A DNA stretch of 64,000 nt from Deltaproteobacteria bacterium (GTDB taxonomy: Bacteria; Myxococcota; Myxococcia; Myxococcales; 40CM-4-68-19). This document shows positions 42,295-49,794 of this stretch, piece by piece. The position numbers and the translations under genes were made by a program. Within the stretch, counting starts at the first letter, position 1. Each line of letters opens with the position of its first letter. The notes beneath the pieces are model-generated. The model had not been told where the DNA came from and ran no database searches. It saw only the letters and a list, made by a program, of their open reading frames with translations. The DNA is taken from positions 16,981-80,980 of the forward strand of contig VBKI01000093.1 in NCBI GenBank assembly GCA_005879535.1. The letters run 5' to 3'.

Positions 42295-42981
42295 TCAGGC
42301 CGAAAGGGGGATCATTTCGCGCAACAGTGCGAGGGCGGCGGGGAACATCCGCTCCGCCCACACATCGTAGCCGAGGGCGCTGGGGTGGAAACCGTCCGGC
42401 GAGAAGAGCTCCGGGTGCCCGGGGAGGGCGTGGCGGCTCCAGTCGTACAGATCGACCAGCGACAATTTGTGCCGCGCCGCCGTGGCCGTGACGTGCTCGT
42501 TGAACAGCTCGATGCGGCGCTCGTAGAACGAACGCTCCACCATCCGCGCCACCGCAGGCGAAAGCGCAAGATCCGGCATGTTCGCGATGACGATGGGGGC
42601 GGCAAGCTTCCGCAACGGCACTACAATCTCTTCCAGGTTCACCGCGAAGGCATCGTCGGGACGCTGCAGGCCTACATCGTTGATCCCGATCCCGATGGTC
42701 ACCAGGCGGGGCCGGGTACGCAGCGCGCGCGGCAGTTGGATCTCGATCACGTCGGAGGTCGTGGCGCCGCTGCCGCCGAGGTTGACGAGCTTCAGCGTCG
42801 GAAACGCTCCGCGGAGCTTCGCCGCGAGTCGTTCCGGATAGCCGCCGCCGCTCGGCGCGCCGATCCCGACCGCCGTGGAGTCGCCGAGCGCCAGATAGAG
42901 GAGTTCCGCCGGCACTGCGACAATGTAGGCATCGCGCAGTCTTGCCGGGCGGGTGCGACCGCCGCCTACCCTGGCCAACAA
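42295..42981 (-). CDS. SGNH/GDSL hydrolase family protein
   Basis: Block I LYLALGDSTAVG, block II NLGGSGATT, block III GINDV, block V DGFHPS. The start is uncertain (TTG 42981 or GTG 42915). Confidence 0.8.
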   Translation of the reverse strand: MLARVGGGRTRPARLRDAYIVAVPAELLYLALGDSTAVGIGAPSGGGYPERLAAKLRGAFPTLKLVNLGGSGATTSDVIEIQLPRALRTRPRLVTIGIGINDVGLQRPDDAFAVNLEEIVVPLRKLAAPIVIANMPDLALSPAVARMVERSFYERRIELFNEHVTATAARHKLSLVDLYDWSRHALPGHPELFSPDGFHPSALGYDVWAERMFPAALALLREMIPLSA

Positions 42982-43022
42982 ACAGGCGAATTTGCACCCC
43001 GATGCTAAGCTGGCAGGCGTCG

Positions 43023-45872
43023 ATGATCTCAGGGAAGGACCTCCTCAACCAGTTCAAGGCTGCGTCGTGGAGGGCCCCCGACGAGGTGGAGCGATTCGTC
43101 GCGGAAGCGGAAGCGCCGCAGACCGCGGAGCTCCTGAAACTGCTGGACATCGTCACGGGAAAAGCGCCGGACGCGAGCGTGCAGCGCGCGCGGCTGACGG
43201 TGTTCGCGCGCTTGATCGACAAGAACCCGGACAAGGCGCTCTGCGCGCCGTTCGTGAAGGCGCTGAAGTCGGCGGAGCCGGCGCTGCGAACCACGCTCGC
43301 CGCGCTGCTGCCCAAGGTGAACAGCGCGACCGAGCACGCGGTGCTGGTCGACTACCTGCGCTCGTCCGATAGCGGGCTGCGCGCCACCGTCGCGCGTACC
43401 CTGCAGCAGCTCGGCGGCAGCCGCGCGCTGTTCGATCTGCTCGGCCGCGCGGTGGCCGAGGCGGGTTTCGCAGGCCGCATCGAAGCGATGGACGTCCTGG
43501 TAGGCTTCGCCAAGCAACAGGCGATCCCCGCCCTGCAAGCGGCGCTCATCTCCGGCTCGGCGGCGGAAAAGGTACACGCGCTCAAGCACCTCGGCAACGC
43601 CGCGGTGATGGGCAAGGACCCTGCCGCTGCCCTCAAGGCCATCGCGCCGCTGCTCGACGCGCAGAAGGAGCAGGAGGCGGTCGTCGTCCAGGCCGTCCTC
43701 GCCTTCTCGGCCCTCGCCACTGAGGATGACTGGTTCGAGTACGTGGGCATCTTCCTCGACTCCGACACGGTGGGAATGGTCAAGGCGGCGGTCGACGGAC
43801 TGCGCCGCTTCAGCTCCGCCCGCGTGATGGCCGCGCTGGAGCGGAAGATGCGCGCCGGCCCGCGCGTCATCCGCCTCGCGGTGCTCGGAGCGCTGGAGGC
43901 CATCGGCACCGACGCCGTGCTGCCGCCGCTGGTCGACGCCCTCGCCCACAACCAGATCCCGGTGCGAAACCGCGCCGCCGAAGTTCTCAAGCAGCTCTCG
44001 ATGGAGGGCAAGCTCGACGTCTCGCGGACGGTGATCTGGCTGCTGCGCAGCCGCGACGTCAACGTACGCCGGATGGCGACGGAGATCATCCGCACAGTCG
44101 CCGATCCCGATCAACAGCTCTGGCCAAAGCTGATGGGCGTGCTGCGGGACGAGGACTGGTGGGTGCGCGAGCGCGTCATGGACGCGCTGATCGAACTCGG
44201 CGGCGTTCGCCTCACGGCCCACGTCGTGTCCCTGCTCACGGATGCCAGCGACGTGATCCGGCGCTTCGCGGTCAGCGTGCTCGGCCGGATCAAGGATCCC
44301 AAGGCTTTGCGCTCGCTGGTGCAGATGGCCACCGAGGATACCGATTGGTGGGTGAAGGAGACCGCCATCGAGTCGGTGGCTGCGATCAACGACGCGCGCA
44401 CGGTCCCGCACCTCCTGCACATCATGGCTGCAGATGCCGACGTGCAGCCGGTGTGCATCCAGGCGCTGATCGACATGGGCGTGAAGACAGCAAGCCCGCA
44501 GGTTGCGTCCCTCTGCGCATCGGAAAGCGCGGACGTGCGGTACCTGGTGGTGAAGTATCTCGACAAGTTCGATGCCAGCGATCAGTCGGGGGCGGTGGCG
44601 AAACTGAACGACGATCCGCATCCCAAAGTGCGCTCAGCGGCGCGCGATCTGATCACCCGCTGGCGGATCACTGCCCAAGGGAAGCCAGCGCACGCGGTCC
44701 CGCTGCTCGACCGGCTCCTCCTTCAGCTCGCACAGGCCGAGGGCGACGACCTGATCATCGCTTCCGGCAAGCCCGTGTTCATGAAGAAGGTCGGACGCGT
44801 CAACGCCGTGAACGCGACGCCGCTGGAAGAAGAGCAGGTCAAGGCGCTGCTTTTGCCGCATCTCTCCACCGACCAGCTGATGGCGCTGCAGGCGATGCAG
44901 GACGTCGACTACTCGCACGAGGTGAAGAGCGAGGGGCTACGGTTTCGCGCCAACATCTTCTACCAGCTGGGAGGCCTCTCCGGCGTCTTCCGGCGCATCC
45001 GCGGGACGCTGCCGCAGTTCGAGAAGCTCGGCCTGCCGCCGCTGGTCCGTACCTTCGGCGACCTCAAGAACGGGCTGGTGTTGGTGGGCGGGCCGACGGG
45101 CTCGGGCAAGTCGACCACGCTCGCCGCGCTGATCGATTACATCAACCGGACCGCGTCGCGGCACATCATCGCGCTCGAGGATCCCATCGAGGTGATCCAC
45201 AAGCGCAAGGAGAGTCTCGTCAACCAGCGCGAGGTCGGCAGTCATACCCGCACCTTCGCCGCCGCCCTGCGATCGACGCTGCGCGAGGACCCGAACGTCA
45301 TCCTGGTCGGCGAGATGCGCGACCTGCCGACCATCGAGTTCACCGTGGTCGCGGCGGAAACGGGCCACCTGGTGTTCGGGACCGTGCACACGGTTTCCGC
45401 CGCCACCACCGTCGACCGCATCGTCAGCGCGTTTCCCCCGGGACAACAGCAGCAGGTGCGCTCGACGCTCGCCGACTCCCTGCGCGCCGTGGTCTGCCAG
45501 TATCTCATGAAGGAGAAAACCGGCCCGGGTCGCGTGCTCGCCGTGGAGCTGCTGGTGAACAACGAAGCCGTCTCCAACCTGATCCGGAAAGGAAAGGCCT
45601 TCCAGCTTCCCTCGGTGATCTCCACCTCTCGCGAGCAGGGCATGCAGCTGATGGATTCCGACCTGATGCGTTTGGTGAAGGAGAACCGGATCAGCGCCGC
45701 CGACGCGTACGTGAAGGCGCTGAGCAAGAAGGATTTCGAGCCGCTGCTGGATGCGGAGGAAAAGCTCGCGCAGCAGAAGCGCATTCCGATTTTCAAGCCG
45801 TCGGCAGCCATCCCCACGCGGCCGCAACCGATCGCCGCAGTCCGTACGGCACCGGCAACGAGGAAGGAATAG
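43023..45872 (+). CDS. HEAT-repeat domain fused to a PilT-family hexameric secretion ATPase
   Basis: The N-terminal ~555 aa hold multiple HEAT_2/PBS-type repeats (e.g. LRDEDWWVRERVMDALIELGG, ATEDTDWWVKETAIESVAAIND, LNDDPHPKVRSAARDL). The C-terminal ~390 aa form a complete PilT core: Walker A GGPTGSGKSTT, Asp box ALEDPIE, Walker B ILVGEMRD, His box GHLVFGTVHT, and AVSNLIRKGK. An alternative ATG lies at 43002. Confidence 0.85.
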   Translation: MISGKDLLNQFKAASWRAPDEVERFVAEAEAPQTAELLKLLDIVTGKAPDASVQRARLTVFARLIDKNPDKALCAPFVKALKSAEPALRTTLAALLPKVNSATEHAVLVDYLRSSDSGLRATVARTLQQLGGSRALFDLLGRAVAEAGFAGRIEAMDVLVGFAKQQAIPALQAALISGSAAEKVHALKHLGNAAVMGKDPAAALKAIAPLLDAQKEQEAVVVQAVLAFSALATEDDWFEYVGIFLDSDTVGMVKAAVDGLRRFSSARVMAALERKMRAGPRVIRLAVLGALEAIGTDAVLPPLVDALAHNQIPVRNRAAEVLKQLSMEGKLDVSRTVIWLLRSRDVNVRRMATEIIRTVADPDQQLWPKLMGVLRDEDWWVRERVMDALIELGGVRLTAHVVSLLTDASDVIRRFAVSVLGRIKDPKALRSLVQMATEDTDWWVKETAIESVAAINDARTVPHLLHIMAADADVQPVCIQALIDMGVKTASPQVASLCASESADVRYLVVKYLDKFDASDQSGAVAKLNDDPHPKVRSAARDLITRWRITAQGKPAHAVPLLDRLLLQLAQAEGDDLIIASGKPVFMKKVGRVNAVNATPLEEEQVKALLLPHLSTDQLMALQAMQDVDYSHEVKSEGLRFRANIFYQLGGLSGVFRRIRGTLPQFEKLGLPPLVRTFGDLKNGLVLVGGPTGSGKSTTLAALIDYINRTASRHIIALEDPIEVIHKRKESLVNQREVGSHTRTFAAALRSTLREDPNVILVGEMRDLPTIEFTVVAAETGHLVFGTVHTVSAATTVDRIVSAFPPGQQQQVRSTLADSLRAVVCQYLMKEKTGPGRVLAVELLVNNEAVSNLIRKGKAFQLPSVISTSREQGMQLMDSDLMRLVKENRISAADAYVKALSKKDFEPLLDAEEKLAQQKRIPIFKPSAAIPTRPQPIAAVRTAPATRKE

Positions 45873-46949
45873 ATGGCCCGGATCGACTCCTTCCTGCGAC
45901 TGGTGGCGGAGCAGGGCGCGAGCGACCTGCATTTCCATGCCGGCAACGTGCCAATCATCCGGTACGAGGGCGCGCTGATGCCGCTTCCATTCCGCGTGCT
46001 CTCGGAGGTGGAGACCAGCCGGTTCCTGCTCGAGCTTCTTGCCGAAGACCAGCGCGCCGAGTTCGAGAAGACGCAGGAAGCGGACCTCGTCTACGCGATC
46101 GAGGGCGTAGCGCGGTTCCGGGTGAACATCTTCGTGCAGTCGCAGGGGCTGGGCGCCGTGTTCCGCGTGATCCCCAACAAGGTCCCCACGCTGCAGGACC
46201 TGCGGCTGCCCCCGGCGGTCAAGAAGCTCACCCTGCTGGCCAACGGGTTGGTGCTGGTCACCGGCCCCACCGGATCGGGGAAGAGCACCACGCTGGCGGC
46301 GATGGTGGACGAGATCAACAAGTCGTCGCAGCGCCACGTGATCAGCATCGAGGATCCGATCGAGTTCCTCCACCAGCCCATCAAGGGCGCCATCACGCAG
46401 CGGCAAGTGGGAAAGCACGCCGAGTCGTTCTCCAGCGCCCTGCGGTCGGCGCTGCGCGAGAGTCCCGACGTGCTGGTGGTCGGCGAGATGCGCGATCTGG
46501 AGACCATCCACCTCGCCATCGCCGCGGCCGAGACGGGCGTGCTGGTGATCGGAACGCTGCATTCGAACAGCGCCGCGAAGGCGATCGACCGCATCATCGA
46601 CGTGATCCCGGAGGAGAGCCGCGACCAGGTGCGCAGCACGCTCTCCGTGCTCTTGCGCGGCGTGATCTCGCAGCACCTCGCCAAGCACGCCAGCGGAGAG
46701 GGGCGCGTGGCGGTGATGGAGGTGCTGCTGCAGAGCTACGCGGTCGCCAACCTGATCCGCGAAAACAAGATCTTCCAGATCGACGGCTATCTCGACAGCG
46801 CCTCCAACGACGGCAGCGGGATGCAGAGCCTCGACGCCAGCCTGTTCAGGCTGCTCAAGCAGGGCGACATCACCGTCGAGGAGGCGATCAAGCTCGCGAA
46901 TCTACCCGAGTCGCTCAAGCGCCTGGCGGCGGAAATGCAGGAGGAGTGA
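45873..46949 (+). CDS. pilT: PilT-family type IV pilus retraction-type ATPase paralog
   Basis: Full-length PilT similarity: GPTGSGKSTT, IEDPIE, LVVGEMRD, GVLVIGTLHS, AVANLIRENK. The ATG immediately follows the upstream TAG. Confidence 0.9.
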   Translation: MARIDSFLRLVAEQGASDLHFHAGNVPIIRYEGALMPLPFRVLSEVETSRFLLELLAEDQRAEFEKTQEADLVYAIEGVARFRVNIFVQSQGLGAVFRVIPNKVPTLQDLRLPPAVKKLTLLANGLVLVTGPTGSGKSTTLAAMVDEINKSSQRHVISIEDPIEFLHQPIKGAITQRQVGKHAESFSSALRSALRESPDVLVVGEMRDLETIHLAIAAAETGVLVIGTLHSNSAAKAIDRIIDVIPEESRDQVRSTLSVLLRGVISQHLAKHASGEGRVAVMEVLLQSYAVANLIRENKIFQIDGYLDSASNDGSGMQSLDASLFRLLKQGDITVEEAIKLANLPESLKRLAAEMQEE

Positions 46950-48964
46950 TGGATGCCAAGGCCCGCGAGAAGGCGCTGGATCGAGCGCGGGGCCTGGAGA
47001 AGGCCGGGCAAGGCGACGCCGCCGCGAGACTCTTCCGCGACGTGGGCGCGGTGGAGGAAGCGGCGCGCGTGCTCGGCTCGCTGCGGCGGCCGCGCGACGC
47101 CGGGCAGCTCTTGCTGGAGAGCCTGGGAGTGCAACCGGGGCAGGTCGGACGGCTCGATTCTGCGGGAAGGAAGCGCGCCCTGATGGCAGCCATCTTCTTC
47201 GGGCGCGCGAGGGAGAACCAGACCGCAGTGCAGATGTTCATGGCCCTCGGCGAGCAGCAGCGCGCGGTGGAGGTCCTGCAGAAAGCCGGCGATTCGGTAG
47301 GCGCTGCGAAGCTGTCCTCGATGAAGCCGGGGCAGTTCGAGACCGGGCCGCTGCTGGCGCCGTCGAAGGCCACCGCCGTGGGCGGGCAGGCCGTCTCGAT
47401 GGTCTCGGCGCAAAAGCTCGAGCAGCAGGGCAAGCACGAAGCTGCCCTGCAATCGTACGTGCAGCTGAAGCGCTTCGCGGACGCAGCCCGCATGGCGAAA
47501 GTGCTGGGGCGGAAGGCCGACGCGGCCCAACTCTACGCCGACGCGGGGGCGCCGTTCGAGGCCGCGCAGGCCTACCTCGAGCTCGGGGATACCGGAAAGG
47601 CGCTGGAGAACCTCTGCCGCGTACCCGCCGAAGACGCGCAGTACCGCGTGGCGGCGGCCATCGCGGTGCGCCTGGCTACGAACCTCAACGTGCTCGATTT
47701 CCGCTTCGAGCACTTCGTCGGCCCGTACGTGCGCAGTGGGCCGCGCGACGCCGCGGAGCTGCAGGTCTTCGACCTGCTCGCGGCGCTGTACGACTCGCAT
47801 GGGTTTCCCGAGAACGCCCGCGAAGCGTTGCAGAAGCTGCTCGCAGCGCAGCCCGCGCATCCGGGCGCGCGCGAGCGCCTGGGCCGCGTCGAAGAGCAGC
47901 TCCGGCCTTCGGCGATGGTCGCGCGCCAGGTCCTCTCCAACGCGGACCTCCACAAGAAGCGCATGCCGTCGTTGCCGGACCTGGGCGATCTGCCGGATTT
48001 GCCCGGCGGCGGCTCGGCCACGGTTCTTCGCACCGATCCCGGGTTGTTGAAGAAGGTGAGCAGGTCGCCGGAAACCACGCCGCCGGAATTGCTCGCGGAA
48101 GCCGAAGTCGTGGTCGGACAACCCGTCTCTTCCGAGGAGAAGTTCGAAGTCGGCGCGACCGTGGCCGGCCGCTATCGCCTCGAGGCGAAGATCGGCCAGG
48201 GTGGCATGGCGACCGTCTTCCGCGCGTTCGATCTGGAGCTGGAGGAAAACGTCGCGCTCAAGGTCTTCAACCTGGAGCAGGCGTCGGAGGTGCTCGTGGC
48301 GCGGTTCAAGCAGGAGCTGAAGCTCTCGCGCCAGCTCATCCACCCGAACATCATCCGGCTGTACGACATCGGCGCGCACAACGGACATCGGTACATCAGC
48401 ATGGAGCTGCTGGTGGGCAAGAGCCTCAAGGACTGCATGCGCCAGCCCATCGAGTTCCGCACCGCGCTCGGGTACCTGCTGCAGGCGTGCCACGGCCTGC
48501 AGGCGGCGCACGACGCGGGCGTCATCCACCGCGACGTAAAGCCGGACAACTTCTTCGTTACCGAGGACGGTATCCTCAAAGTGATGGACTTCGGCATCGC
48601 CAAGCAGTACGCCACGCCGGGTGTGACGGTGGCCGGGGCCATCGCTGGAACTCCGCTCTACATGTCGCCGGAACAGATCGGAAACTTCAGCACCGTGACG
48701 CACCTGACCGACATCTACGCGCTGGGCGTCTGCGCCTACGAGATGTTCACCGGGCAGGTGCCGTTCTTCCACGAGGAGCTGGTGCCGATCCTGATGATGC
48801 ACGTGAACAACCGACCGGTGCCGCCGCGGGAAAAGAACCCGCACGTGCCAGCCGAGCTGGACGCGATCATCGTCCGGCTGCTCGCCAAGGACCCCAGGCA
48901 GCGGTACCAGAGTTGCCGCGAGCTGGCGCAGGAGCTGGGCGCGATTCGCGACGCGTACGCATGA
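46949..48964 (+). CDS. Ser/Thr protein kinase with N-terminal ~370-aa helical-repeat (TPR-like) domain
   Basis: TGATG junction with pilT. The C-terminal Hanks kinase has GQGGMATVF, VALKV, HRDVKPDN, DFG and SPE motifs. The N-terminus is alpha-helical repeat sequence. Only the last 671 aa of the 1601-aa track ORF look real. Confidence 0.9.
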   Translation: MDAKAREKALDRARGLEKAGQGDAAARLFRDVGAVEEAARVLGSLRRPRDAGQLLLESLGVQPGQVGRLDSAGRKRALMAAIFFGRARENQTAVQMFMALGEQQRAVEVLQKAGDSVGAAKLSSMKPGQFETGPLLAPSKATAVGGQAVSMVSAQKLEQQGKHEAALQSYVQLKRFADAARMAKVLGRKADAAQLYADAGAPFEAAQAYLELGDTGKALENLCRVPAEDAQYRVAAAIAVRLATNLNVLDFRFEHFVGPYVRSGPRDAAELQVFDLLAALYDSHGFPENAREALQKLLAAQPAHPGARERLGRVEEQLRPSAMVARQVLSNADLHKKRMPSLPDLGDLPDLPGGGSATVLRTDPGLLKKVSRSPETTPPELLAEAEVVVGQPVSSEEKFEVGATVAGRYRLEAKIGQGGMATVFRAFDLELEENVALKVFNLEQASEVLVARFKQELKLSRQLIHPNIIRLYDIGAHNGHRYISMELLVGKSLKDCMRQPIEFRTALGYLLQACHGLQAAHDAGVIHRDVKPDNFFVTEDGILKVMDFGIAKQYATPGVTVAGAIAGTPLYMSPEQIGNFSTVTHLTDIYALGVCAYEMFTGQVPFFHEELVPILMMHVNNRPVPPREKNPHVPAELDAIIVRLLAKDPRQRYQSCRELAQELGAIRDAYA

Positions 48965-49794
48965 TCGGCGTTGCGCTCGCGCTCGCGGTGGGCGCATCGG
49001 ACAAGGTCGACGTGCGACCCGCGGCGGATCTCACCGTCGCCGGAGTGGCCCTCGTCGGATGGATCGTTCCGGAGCTCTCGCGGAACCAGCTCGTGCCGGC
49101 CCACTGCCGGCTCTGCGACGGCGCCGACAATACCGGCCTTCCCGGGACGGGGTCGCGCGGCTCGCTGAACGGCGTCGACGCCTGGTTTCACGACGCCATG
49201 ACGGGATGGGTTTTGTCGCGGTCGACGGCGGGCGTCGCCAGCGACGTCGTCGCGTACCTTCTCGTGCCGGCTGCGGCGATTGCCGGCGCCTGGACCACGA
49301 CGGGGCCGCACGCAAGCGACGGGGCCGATTGGCGTGCCGTGTCCATTGTCATGGAGTCGGCTCTCCTCTCCGGCGCCCTCGCGGAGGGTGTGAAGTTCAT
49401 CGCCGCGCGCAAGCGGCCATACGTGCGCTACGGCACCGGCGAAGCGGAGGGAACGTACGGCGTGACCGACGTGGGCAGCCACCTCGGCTTTCCCTCAGGC
49501 CATACCGCGTGGGTGACGTCGCTCGGCGTCGCCCTGGCGACCACCGCGACCATTGAGGAATCCGCCGCGGCTCCGTGGCTCTGGGCCGGCGCCGCCGTCG
49601 GCTCAGTGACGACCTCGGCGCTGCGCATGATCGCTGAGAAGCACTACTTCACCGACGTGGCGGCCGGCGCCGCCATCGGGGCGGCCTGCGGCGTCGTCGT
49701 GCCGCTTCTCCACCGGCGCGGCGGGCCGTTGTCCAGCGGCTCGCTGTCGGTTGCCGCGCAGGGGCCCTCGTTTGCGCTGACCGGCCGTTTCTAA
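48961..49794 (+). CDS. PAP2-family membrane phosphatase
   Basis: ATGA overlap with the kinase stop. PAP2 motifs KFIAARKRP, PSGH and SALRMIAEKHYFTD. Several TM helices. Confidence 0.8.
   Translation: MIGVALALAVGASDKVDVRPAADLTVAGVALVGWIVPELSRNQLVPAHCRLCDGADNTGLPGTGSRGSLNGVDAWFHDAMTGWVLSRSTAGVASDVVAYLLVPAAAIAGAWTTTGPHASDGADWRAVSIVMESALLSGALAEGVKFIAARKRPYVRYGTGEAEGTYGVTDVGSHLGFPSGHTAWVTSLGVALATTATIEESAAAPWLWAGAAVGSVTTSALRMIAEKHYFTDVAAGAAIGAACGVVVPLLHRRGGPLSSGSLSVAAQGPSFALTGRF

Follow-up and report, generated by a model that had tools for sequence, protein, structure and literature searches.

What would a motor of the PilT family do with some 550 residues of HEAT repeats fused to its N-terminus? 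The question is raised by a gene of a soil myxobacterium, Deltaproteobacteria bacterium (Myxococcota; GenBank assembly GCA_005879535.1, contig VBKI01000093.1) that lies in a stretch of 64,000 nucleotides, analysed as a whole and referred to here as the window; all coordinates are positions in this window, whose G+C content is about 68%. The gene, which we call HEAT-PilT, encodes one predicted polypeptide of 104 kDa in which a HEAT-repeat solenoid precedes a complete PilT/PilU-family ATPase core, and together with the genes of a second PilT paralog (PilT2) and a Ser/Thr kinase it makes up a conserved module of three genes. Which of several PilT-type motors a bacterium uses, and how two rings work together to reach very high force, is an active question, with work on PilT-PilU coordination spanning 2019-2026. 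The module is a natural case of a motor that brings along a large protein-docking scaffold and is tied genetically to another motor and to a eukaryote-like kinase. No description of a HEAT-PilT fusion was found in the literature searched, and in the source databases the homologs go under names such as "PilT/PilU family type 4a pilus ATPase" or "twitching motility protein PilT". The architecture is thus hidden in current annotation behind what is simply a "PilT/PilU family ATPase" label.

A real and selected fusion

The gene occupies the following positions.

43023..45872, + strand: HEAT-PilT gene, 949 amino acids from the ATG at 43023; alternative starts are ATG 43002 and TTG 42942

The open reading frame (ORF) is uninterrupted over 42942..45872 (+), with 976 codons counted from the TTG and 949 amino acids counted from ATG 43023. 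This ATG reproduces the N-terminal consensus MxxGKDLLxQFKAAxW of 60 full-length homologs, and a second candidate ATG lies at 43002, 7 codons upstream. At 949 residues, the product exceeds the size of a single-module PilT or PilU (approximately 340-400 amino acids). The reality of the frame was checked because the GC-rich window carries long spurious ORFs in other frames; at the HEAT-PilT locus itself, an overlapping ORF in another frame reaches 1601 codons.

The doubt can be put in a specific form: that translation begins internally, near residue 555-560, and yields nothing but a PilT of normal length, while the HEAT region is a separate or untranslated sequence, or that the fusion was created by assembly or gene calling. 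Besides the tendency of GC-rich DNA to yield long spurious ORFs, this explanation can draw on the RNA runs that were searched, none of which contains the HEAT-PilT sequence; the size of the protein is a prediction from the gene. Several kinds of evidence point the other way. The HEAT-PilT frame yields domain E-values as low as 1e-121, including strong matches to HEAT profiles. Against 10 relatives, the ratio of nonsynonymous to synonymous substitution rates (dN/dS) lies between 0.13 and 0.38 in the HEAT half and between 0.09 and 0.25 in the PilT half; with values well below 1, both halves are under purifying selection. The sequence also recurs in soil metagenomes, where 20 runs hold at least 80% of its sequence words. 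Unitigs from four of these runs, which are possibly not independent of the source assembly or of each other, cover the frame with no reported indels and with no stop or frameshift. In two of the four, the domain junction lies within one unitig that runs over 42900-45118 with 0 gaps and 2 substitutions.

Homologs tell the same story. A profile search of 1.8 billion representatives gave, among the top 150, approximately 45 full-length matches of 890-1160 amino acids in a single stretch, and all eight complete single-stretch family members that were scanned combine HEAT with T2SSE. A free-standing HEAT arm was not seen among these top 150 representatives; two candidates of 650 amino acids are contig-truncated inside the PilT N-terminal domain. 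Internal initiation is unlikely because the arm is under purifying selection and is kept in 370 species genomes, and we regard the explanation as a whole as extremely improbable. The initial annotation had judged an ORF-calling artefact unlikely, and the unitig cover, dN/dS values and profile matches bear this out: the HEAT-PilT fusion is confirmed as a real, selected gene.

The HEAT arm

The N-terminal part of the protein divides as follows.

43023..44675, + strand: HEAT solenoid, residues 1-551, approximately 34 helices (approximately 17 repeats), from Pfam, AlphaFold2 (AF2) and Foldseek
44676..44702, + strand: linker, residues 552-560, between the solenoid and the PilT N-terminal domain; predicted local distance difference test (pLDDT) below 50 at 553-558

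The initial annotation had proposed approximately 555 amino acids of HEAT/PBS-lyase-type repeats ahead of the ATPase core, to be sought by profile in residues 1-555, and such repeats are present there. Three Pfam families score above their gathering cut-offs: HEAT_2 (PF13646; 1e-38, 131.9 bits against 27.7, in five stretches of the protein), HEAT (PF02985; 2e-12, 46.4 bits against 23.5) and HEAT_PBS (PF03130; 2e-7, 31.5 bits against 20.9). A Pfam scan for the combination with T2SSE found both domain types in HEAT-PilT. The recurring D.DWWVR motif pointed out in the initial annotation is also found, as DEDWWVRE at residues 376-383 and DTDWWVKE at 439-446, and looser D..VR..A repeats occur elsewhere in the arm, at residues 116, 345, 410 and 425. 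Both DWWV motifs fall in the best-conserved block of the arm, residues 335-460, as judged by invariant columns in two alignments. A search for DNA-level repeats in the HEAT region found two trivial micro-repeats only; the HEAT repeats are ancient and detectable at the protein level alone.

An AF2 model built on the 60-sequence alignment has a mean pLDDT of 85 and a predicted template modelling score (pTM) of 0.50 for the HEAT-PilT monomer. In it, residues 4-551 form an unbroken stack of 34 helices with pLDDT of approximately 90, and the arm modelled alone reaches a pLDDT of 88. We are therefore confident that the modelled arm is an all-alpha HEAT solenoid of paired antiparallel helices. The closest structure to the isolated arm in Foldseek is the PP2A A subunit PR65 (approximately 600 aligned columns), followed by alphaRep designs, karyopherins, CAND1 and SF3B1.

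A phycobilin lyase function of the arm was considered and rejected. The phycobilin lyase/NblB models, which cover NblB, CpcE and CpeY (NF045915, NF058502 and NF058505), score 61, 52 and 23 bits against cut-offs of 300, 330 and 600; Myxococcota are not known to have phycobilisomes.

A PilT core with intact motifs

Behind the linker, the ATPase core and its motifs are placed as follows.

44703..45737, + strand: PilT/PilU-family ATPase core, residues 561-905 (N-terminal and ATPase domains), from TIGR01420, 3jvu and Foldseek
45090..45116, + strand: Walker A GPTGSGKST, residues 690-698, by motif alignment
45177..45191, + strand: Asp box EDPIE, residues 719-723, by motif alignment
45288..45323, + strand: Walker B DPNVILVGEMRD with the catalytic Glu (VGEMRD), residues 756-767, by motif alignment
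45360..45392, + strand: His box TGHLVFGTVHT with both His kept, residues 780-790, by motif alignment
45567..45590, + strand: AVSNLIRK, counterpart of the PilT motif AIRNLIRE, residues 849-856, by motif alignment
45738..45869, + strand: C-terminal tail, residues 906-949; in AF2 a helix to approximately 919, with the last approximately 30 residues disordered

The core is complete, as first annotated. The NCBIfam model TIGR01420 (pilT_fam) matches residues 562-903 over profile positions 2-342 of 343 with 403.8 bits against a cut-off of 319.1, and Pfam T2SSE (PF00437) matches at 8e-38. In a PDB sequence search, the best solved relative is Pseudomonas aeruginosa PilT (3jvu; 9e-86 over residues 566-905). 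AF2 folds residues 561-905 as the two-domain PilT structure, an N-terminal domain and a RecA-like ATPase domain, and Foldseek matches this core to structures of PilT4, PilT and PilU with TMt of 0.74-0.89 and E-values of 1e-20 to 1e-23. By homology to PilT structures, the core is expected to form a hexameric ring that hydrolyses ATP.

The His box separates the ATPases of the module from one another. Only the second of its two histidines touches the gamma-phosphate, and mutation of this residue abolishes twitching (McCallum et al. 2019). This histidine is kept in both window ATPases, HEAT-PilT and PilT2. Among 24 sampled HEAT-PilT proteins, 23 keep both histidines; in all 24 sampled PilT2 orthologs, TGH is replaced by TG[V/I/T] while the gamma-phosphate histidine is retained. 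In their motif near the C-terminus, both proteins look closer to PilT than to PilU. AVSNLIRK of HEAT-PilT matches AIRNLIRE at five of eight positions with its NLIR core retained, and PilT2 has AVANLIRE; the PilU clade lacks the motif and has VREMIEDKD. A pseudo-ATPase reading of the HEAT-PilT clade was ruled out, every catalytic motif being intact.

Summed contig depth in soil metagenomes rises from approximately 8 to 100-170 at 45040-45146 and 45254-45360, over the Walker A and the Walker B/His-box codons. We attribute this jump to conserved words that are common to the PilT genes of many organisms and not to copy number.

A three-gene module

The genes around HEAT-PilT in the window are the following.

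45873..46949, + strand: PilT2, a 358-amino-acid PilT paralog with the His box TGVLVIGTLHS (first His lost); TIGR01420 at 424 bits; its ATG abuts the HEAT-PilT TAG
46949..48964, + strand: 671-amino-acid protein with a TPR-like N-terminal domain and a C-terminal Hanks-type Ser/Thr kinase; Pkinase at 5e-50, TPR_14
48961..49794, + strand: PAP2-family membrane phosphatase; PAP2 at 6.5e-16; in the window operon, outside the conserved module
42295-42981, divergently transcribed upstream of HEAT-PilT: GDSL hydrolase

The HEAT-PilT TAG is followed directly by the PilT2 ATG, and both PilT2 and the kinase gene, and the kinase and PAP2 genes, overlap in an ATGA. The window genes are thus predicted to be translationally coupled, with HEAT-PilT first in the operon. 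A sigma-70 promoter and terminator scan of the locus gave nothing useful. The kinase has an inverted domain order, its N-terminal half being a TPR-like sensor and its C-terminal half the kinase domain, and its HRD and DFG motifs and Gly loop are intact.

The HEAT-PilT architecture extends well beyond one gene. An arm-alignment scan with one genome per species found a relative of the arm encoded in 370 genomes, mostly of uncultured Myxococcota, and in nearly every examined locus with enough sequence it sits inside a three-gene module with PilT2 and the TPR-kinase. Synteny was counted in the best 80 of these 370 species genomes, all 80 of them metagenome-assembled. In these loci, a PilT core follows the arm in frame; PilT2 comes next if the contig extends far enough, and in nearly all of them the third gene encodes a homolog of the N-terminal half of the kinase. 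Where the third gene was scanned, in 10 diverse loci, it had the TPR-N/Ser-Thr-kinase-C arrangement in every one. PAP2 was found in one of the 80 loci, and both PAP2 and the GDSL hydrolase are common to close relatives only.

Two homologs join HEAT-PilT to PilT2. One of 1296 amino acids continues from HEAT-PilT into PilT2, whose MARLDSF start can still be recognised, and another of 1222 amino acids looks chimeric, with HEAT-PilT joined to a PilT2 that lacks its first approximately 70 residues. We did not take them as Rosetta-stone evidence; they are two cases among thousands, either rare fusions that occur naturally or errors of sequencing or assembly.

Distribution and phylogeny

The module is mainly a feature of Myxococcota, with sporadic occurrences elsewhere. 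Approximately 20 of 201 sampled Myxococcota genomes (approximately 10%) encode a full-length arm in a frame of approximately 950 codons, some of them in two copies. In the window genome's own family, two genomes of other genera lack the arm, and one of these has a tandem PilT pair of the MXAN_6705/6706 type instead. The module was also seen on contigs labelled by their submitters as Vicinamibacteria, Acidobacteria or Thermoanaerobaculaceae, one of them 1.9 Mb long. In the phylum that holds the Acidobacteria-labelled carrier, none of 80 other genomes has the arm, and the Acidobacteriota-labelled occurrences suggest sporadic lateral transfer or mislabelling.

A maximum-likelihood tree built from 58 PilT cores places HEAT-PilT and PilT2 in two clades, either one monophyletic with support of 100/100. 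Their sub-clades are largely parallel, which argues that the two genes are co-inherited. Both clades stand apart from those of canonical PilT, PilU, 6705-like and 6706-like proteins, and the backbone among the groups lacks resolution. New here for the HEAT-PilT clade are the constant presence of a TPR-kinase as third gene, the structure of the clades and their motif signatures. The window genome also has a canonical PilT (contig C85) that is 85% identical to the Myxococcus-type PilT.

A published parallel is in Myxococcus, where the MXAN_6705/6706 pair is widely conserved across the Myxococcales, MXAN_6705 is described with a longer, disordered N-terminus only, and deletions of PilT paralogs, MXAN_6706 among them, give partial S-motility defects (bioRxiv 10.64898/2026.05.11.724270). 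A counterpart of this pair in a Myxococcus-type genome, G118, allowed a direct comparison. Its 6705-like gene (L101:5287-7122) has an extension that consists of a small folded-looking segment followed by PA-rich repeats, and upstream of it, on the opposite strand, lie genes for an Arf/MglA-like small GTPase and a histidine kinase. The 6705-like protein has Asn at the essential second His position, and from its sequence it is probably a catalytically impaired partner of the 6706-like protein.

The HEAT pair could be read as a local ortholog of the MXAN_6705/6706 tandem pair, the arm being a lineage-specific swap for the approximately 260-residue extension of MXAN_6705. Both pairs consist of tandem, coupled PilT paralogs of which the first is the extended one, the first His-box histidine is lost in PilT2 as in the 6706-like proteins, and in the window genome the HEAT pair is present and a 6705/6706-like pair absent, the reverse of the genome from the same family. 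Yet the four groups fall in separate clades, with the unresolved backbone noted above, and the retention of the second His in HEAT-PilT (23 of the 24 sampled) sets it apart from the 6705-like proteins. The Myxococcus-type pair has no TPR-kinase homolog beside it. Furthermore, several genomes hold the HEAT pair together with further tandem PilT pairs of unspecified type, and because of these genomes we set aside a simple replacement of the 6705/6706 pair. Taken as a whole, orthology of the two pairs seems to us improbable.

A putative accessory motor pair

What, then, might the module do? Our preferred reading, to which we give roughly an even chance, is that it is a phosphorylation-linked accessory retraction motor pair on a type IVa pilus machine, with the HEAT arms docking its partners. 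Given a short linker of approximately 10 residues, six arms would lie immediately against the face of the ring formed by the N-terminal domains, where they could act as docking scaffolds for the PilT2 ring, for the TPR domain of the kinase or for both. The module would then serve, in a phosphorylation-linked manner, a type IVa pilus machine encoded elsewhere. A candidate is present in the window genome, in which contig C85 carries a pilB-pilT-pilC cluster away from the module. Contig C10 has a PilU-like gene, and platform genes of the T2SSF family occur three times in the genome, on C85, C52 and C57. On C52, a GspE/PilB-like ATPase gene lies directly upstream of the platform gene.

The proposed docking of PilT2 and/or the TPR domain by the arms draws on synteny, on co-inheritance and on a published bridging model. 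In that model, PilT bridges PilU to the PilC platform (bioRxiv 10.1101/2025.10.30.685630), and the HEAT-PilT ring might link PilT2 by analogy. It is plausible that the arm radically alters what the ring can dock to. An accessory role in retraction is also supported by the G118 counterpart of MXAN_6706, which shares the His-to-Val signature of PilT2.

In one homolog of 1336 amino acids, the HEAT arm and PilT core are preceded by an MshEN domain and by a long linker rich in Pro, Ala and Ser. An MshEN-type N-terminal domain binds cyclic di-GMP in MshE, and its position ahead of the arm fits with the N-terminus of these proteins being a regulatory or targeting module.

Several observations weigh against an accessory retraction motor. 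Pilus machine genes were sought around the module in the 80 loci and none was found, and clustering of the flanking ORFs of the same loci gave no further conserved neighbour. Because only about a tenth of the sampled Myxococcota carry the module, it appears dispensable for ordinary pili. The searched RNA runs lack the gene, as described above. The relative orientation of the domains in the AF2 monomer is uncertain, as reflected in its pTM of 0.50, and the function of every member of the module is a prediction from sequence and models. Finally, the constant kinase could equally point to a signalling role independent of pili.

The main alternative is that two PilT-like rings, a HEAT scaffold and a kinase would together make a self-contained regulator driven by ATP, acting for instance on cell polarity, secretion or the remodelling of the envelope, which would make no contact with the type IVa platform. 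Its appeal lies in a module that lacks pil linkage and has its own three genes as sole conserved neighbours, in which a kinase is always present, whose distribution in Myxococcota is patchy and whose ATPase clades are separate from canonical PilT and PilU; in the window, the module is moreover coupled to a PAP2 lipid phosphatase gene. Set against this, both ATPases score well above the curated PilT/PilU cut-off and keep the NLIR core of the retraction-specific AIRNLIRE, the genome has a full pilB-pilT-pilC cluster that the module could serve, and the PilT paralogs studied in Myxococcus, like those of Neisseria and Geobacter, act on pili. We consider a pilus-independent regulator possible but doubtful.

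A more elaborate version of the accessory motor pair is a kinase-gated double-ring motor, which would be of a kind not known before. One PilT hexamer would use its six PR65-like arms to grip the PilT2 hexamer and/or the TPR domain, and Ser/Thr phosphorylation would set when a stacked, high-force retraction motor engages the platform, or else the assembly would drive a pilus-independent process. We offer this scheme as speculation that is rather unlikely to hold in full. Should the arm tether partners, the stacking of motors, their targeting and the post-translational control of pilus retraction in Myxococcota could be approached directly through the module, which would also supply a case from bacteria of a PR65-like scaffold joined to an AAA+-type ring.

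Comparison with known systems

HEAT-PilT is 41-44% identical to canonical PilT over approximately 340-360 Foldseek columns (P. aeruginosa 3jvu/3jvv; Geobacter PilT4 6ojx/5zfq; Aquifex 2ewv). It shares with them the two-domain fold, Walker A, the Asp box, the Walker B Glu, both His-box histidines and NLIR. Unlike canonical PilT, it has an additional N-terminal solenoid of 551 residues and a C-terminal tail of approximately 45 residues, it falls in its own clade without pilB or pilC linkage, and AIRNLIRE reads AVSNLIRK.

In PilT-PilU systems (Vibrio, Pseudomonas, Acinetobacter; in M. xanthus with MXAN_1995 as PilU), two PilT-family ATPases are likewise adjacent and co-expressed, and in the published model one ring links the other to the platform. 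The second ATPase differs, since PilT2 keeps AVANLIRE where PilU has VREMIEDKD, and PilT2 lies outside the PilU clade. The HEAT arm and the kinase are known from the HEAT-PilT module and not from PilT-PilU systems.

The MXAN_6705/6706 pair resembles the HEAT pair in being an overlapping or abutting tandem pair with an N-terminal extension on the first gene. PilT2 shares with MXAN_6706-like proteins the loss of the first His-box histidine (TG[VI], in the second member only). The first members differ more. The extension of the 6705-like protein, as seen in G118, is approximately 260 residues long, partly PA-rich and disordered, and gives no HEAT match. Its Asn replaces the essential second His that HEAT-PilT retains, and no TPR-kinase homolog is adjacent at the G118 locus.

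The arm itself has relatives outside the pilus field. It is of the same repeat subtype (HEAT_PBS, HEAT_2) as PBS-lyase-type proteins such as CpcE/CpcF and NblB, and chains of alphaRep designed proteins, which are consensus designs, match it at 1e-32. PR65, with 15 HEAT repeats (1b3u, 2npp), is similar in length and is its best structural match, although because identity (14-17%) and TM (0.35-0.45) are low we take this likeness as a generic solenoid resemblance and not as evidence of shared function. PR65 has the shape of a flexible horseshoe and binds an enzyme together with a regulatory subunit, whereas the arm of HEAT-PilT is covalently joined to an enzyme of its own.

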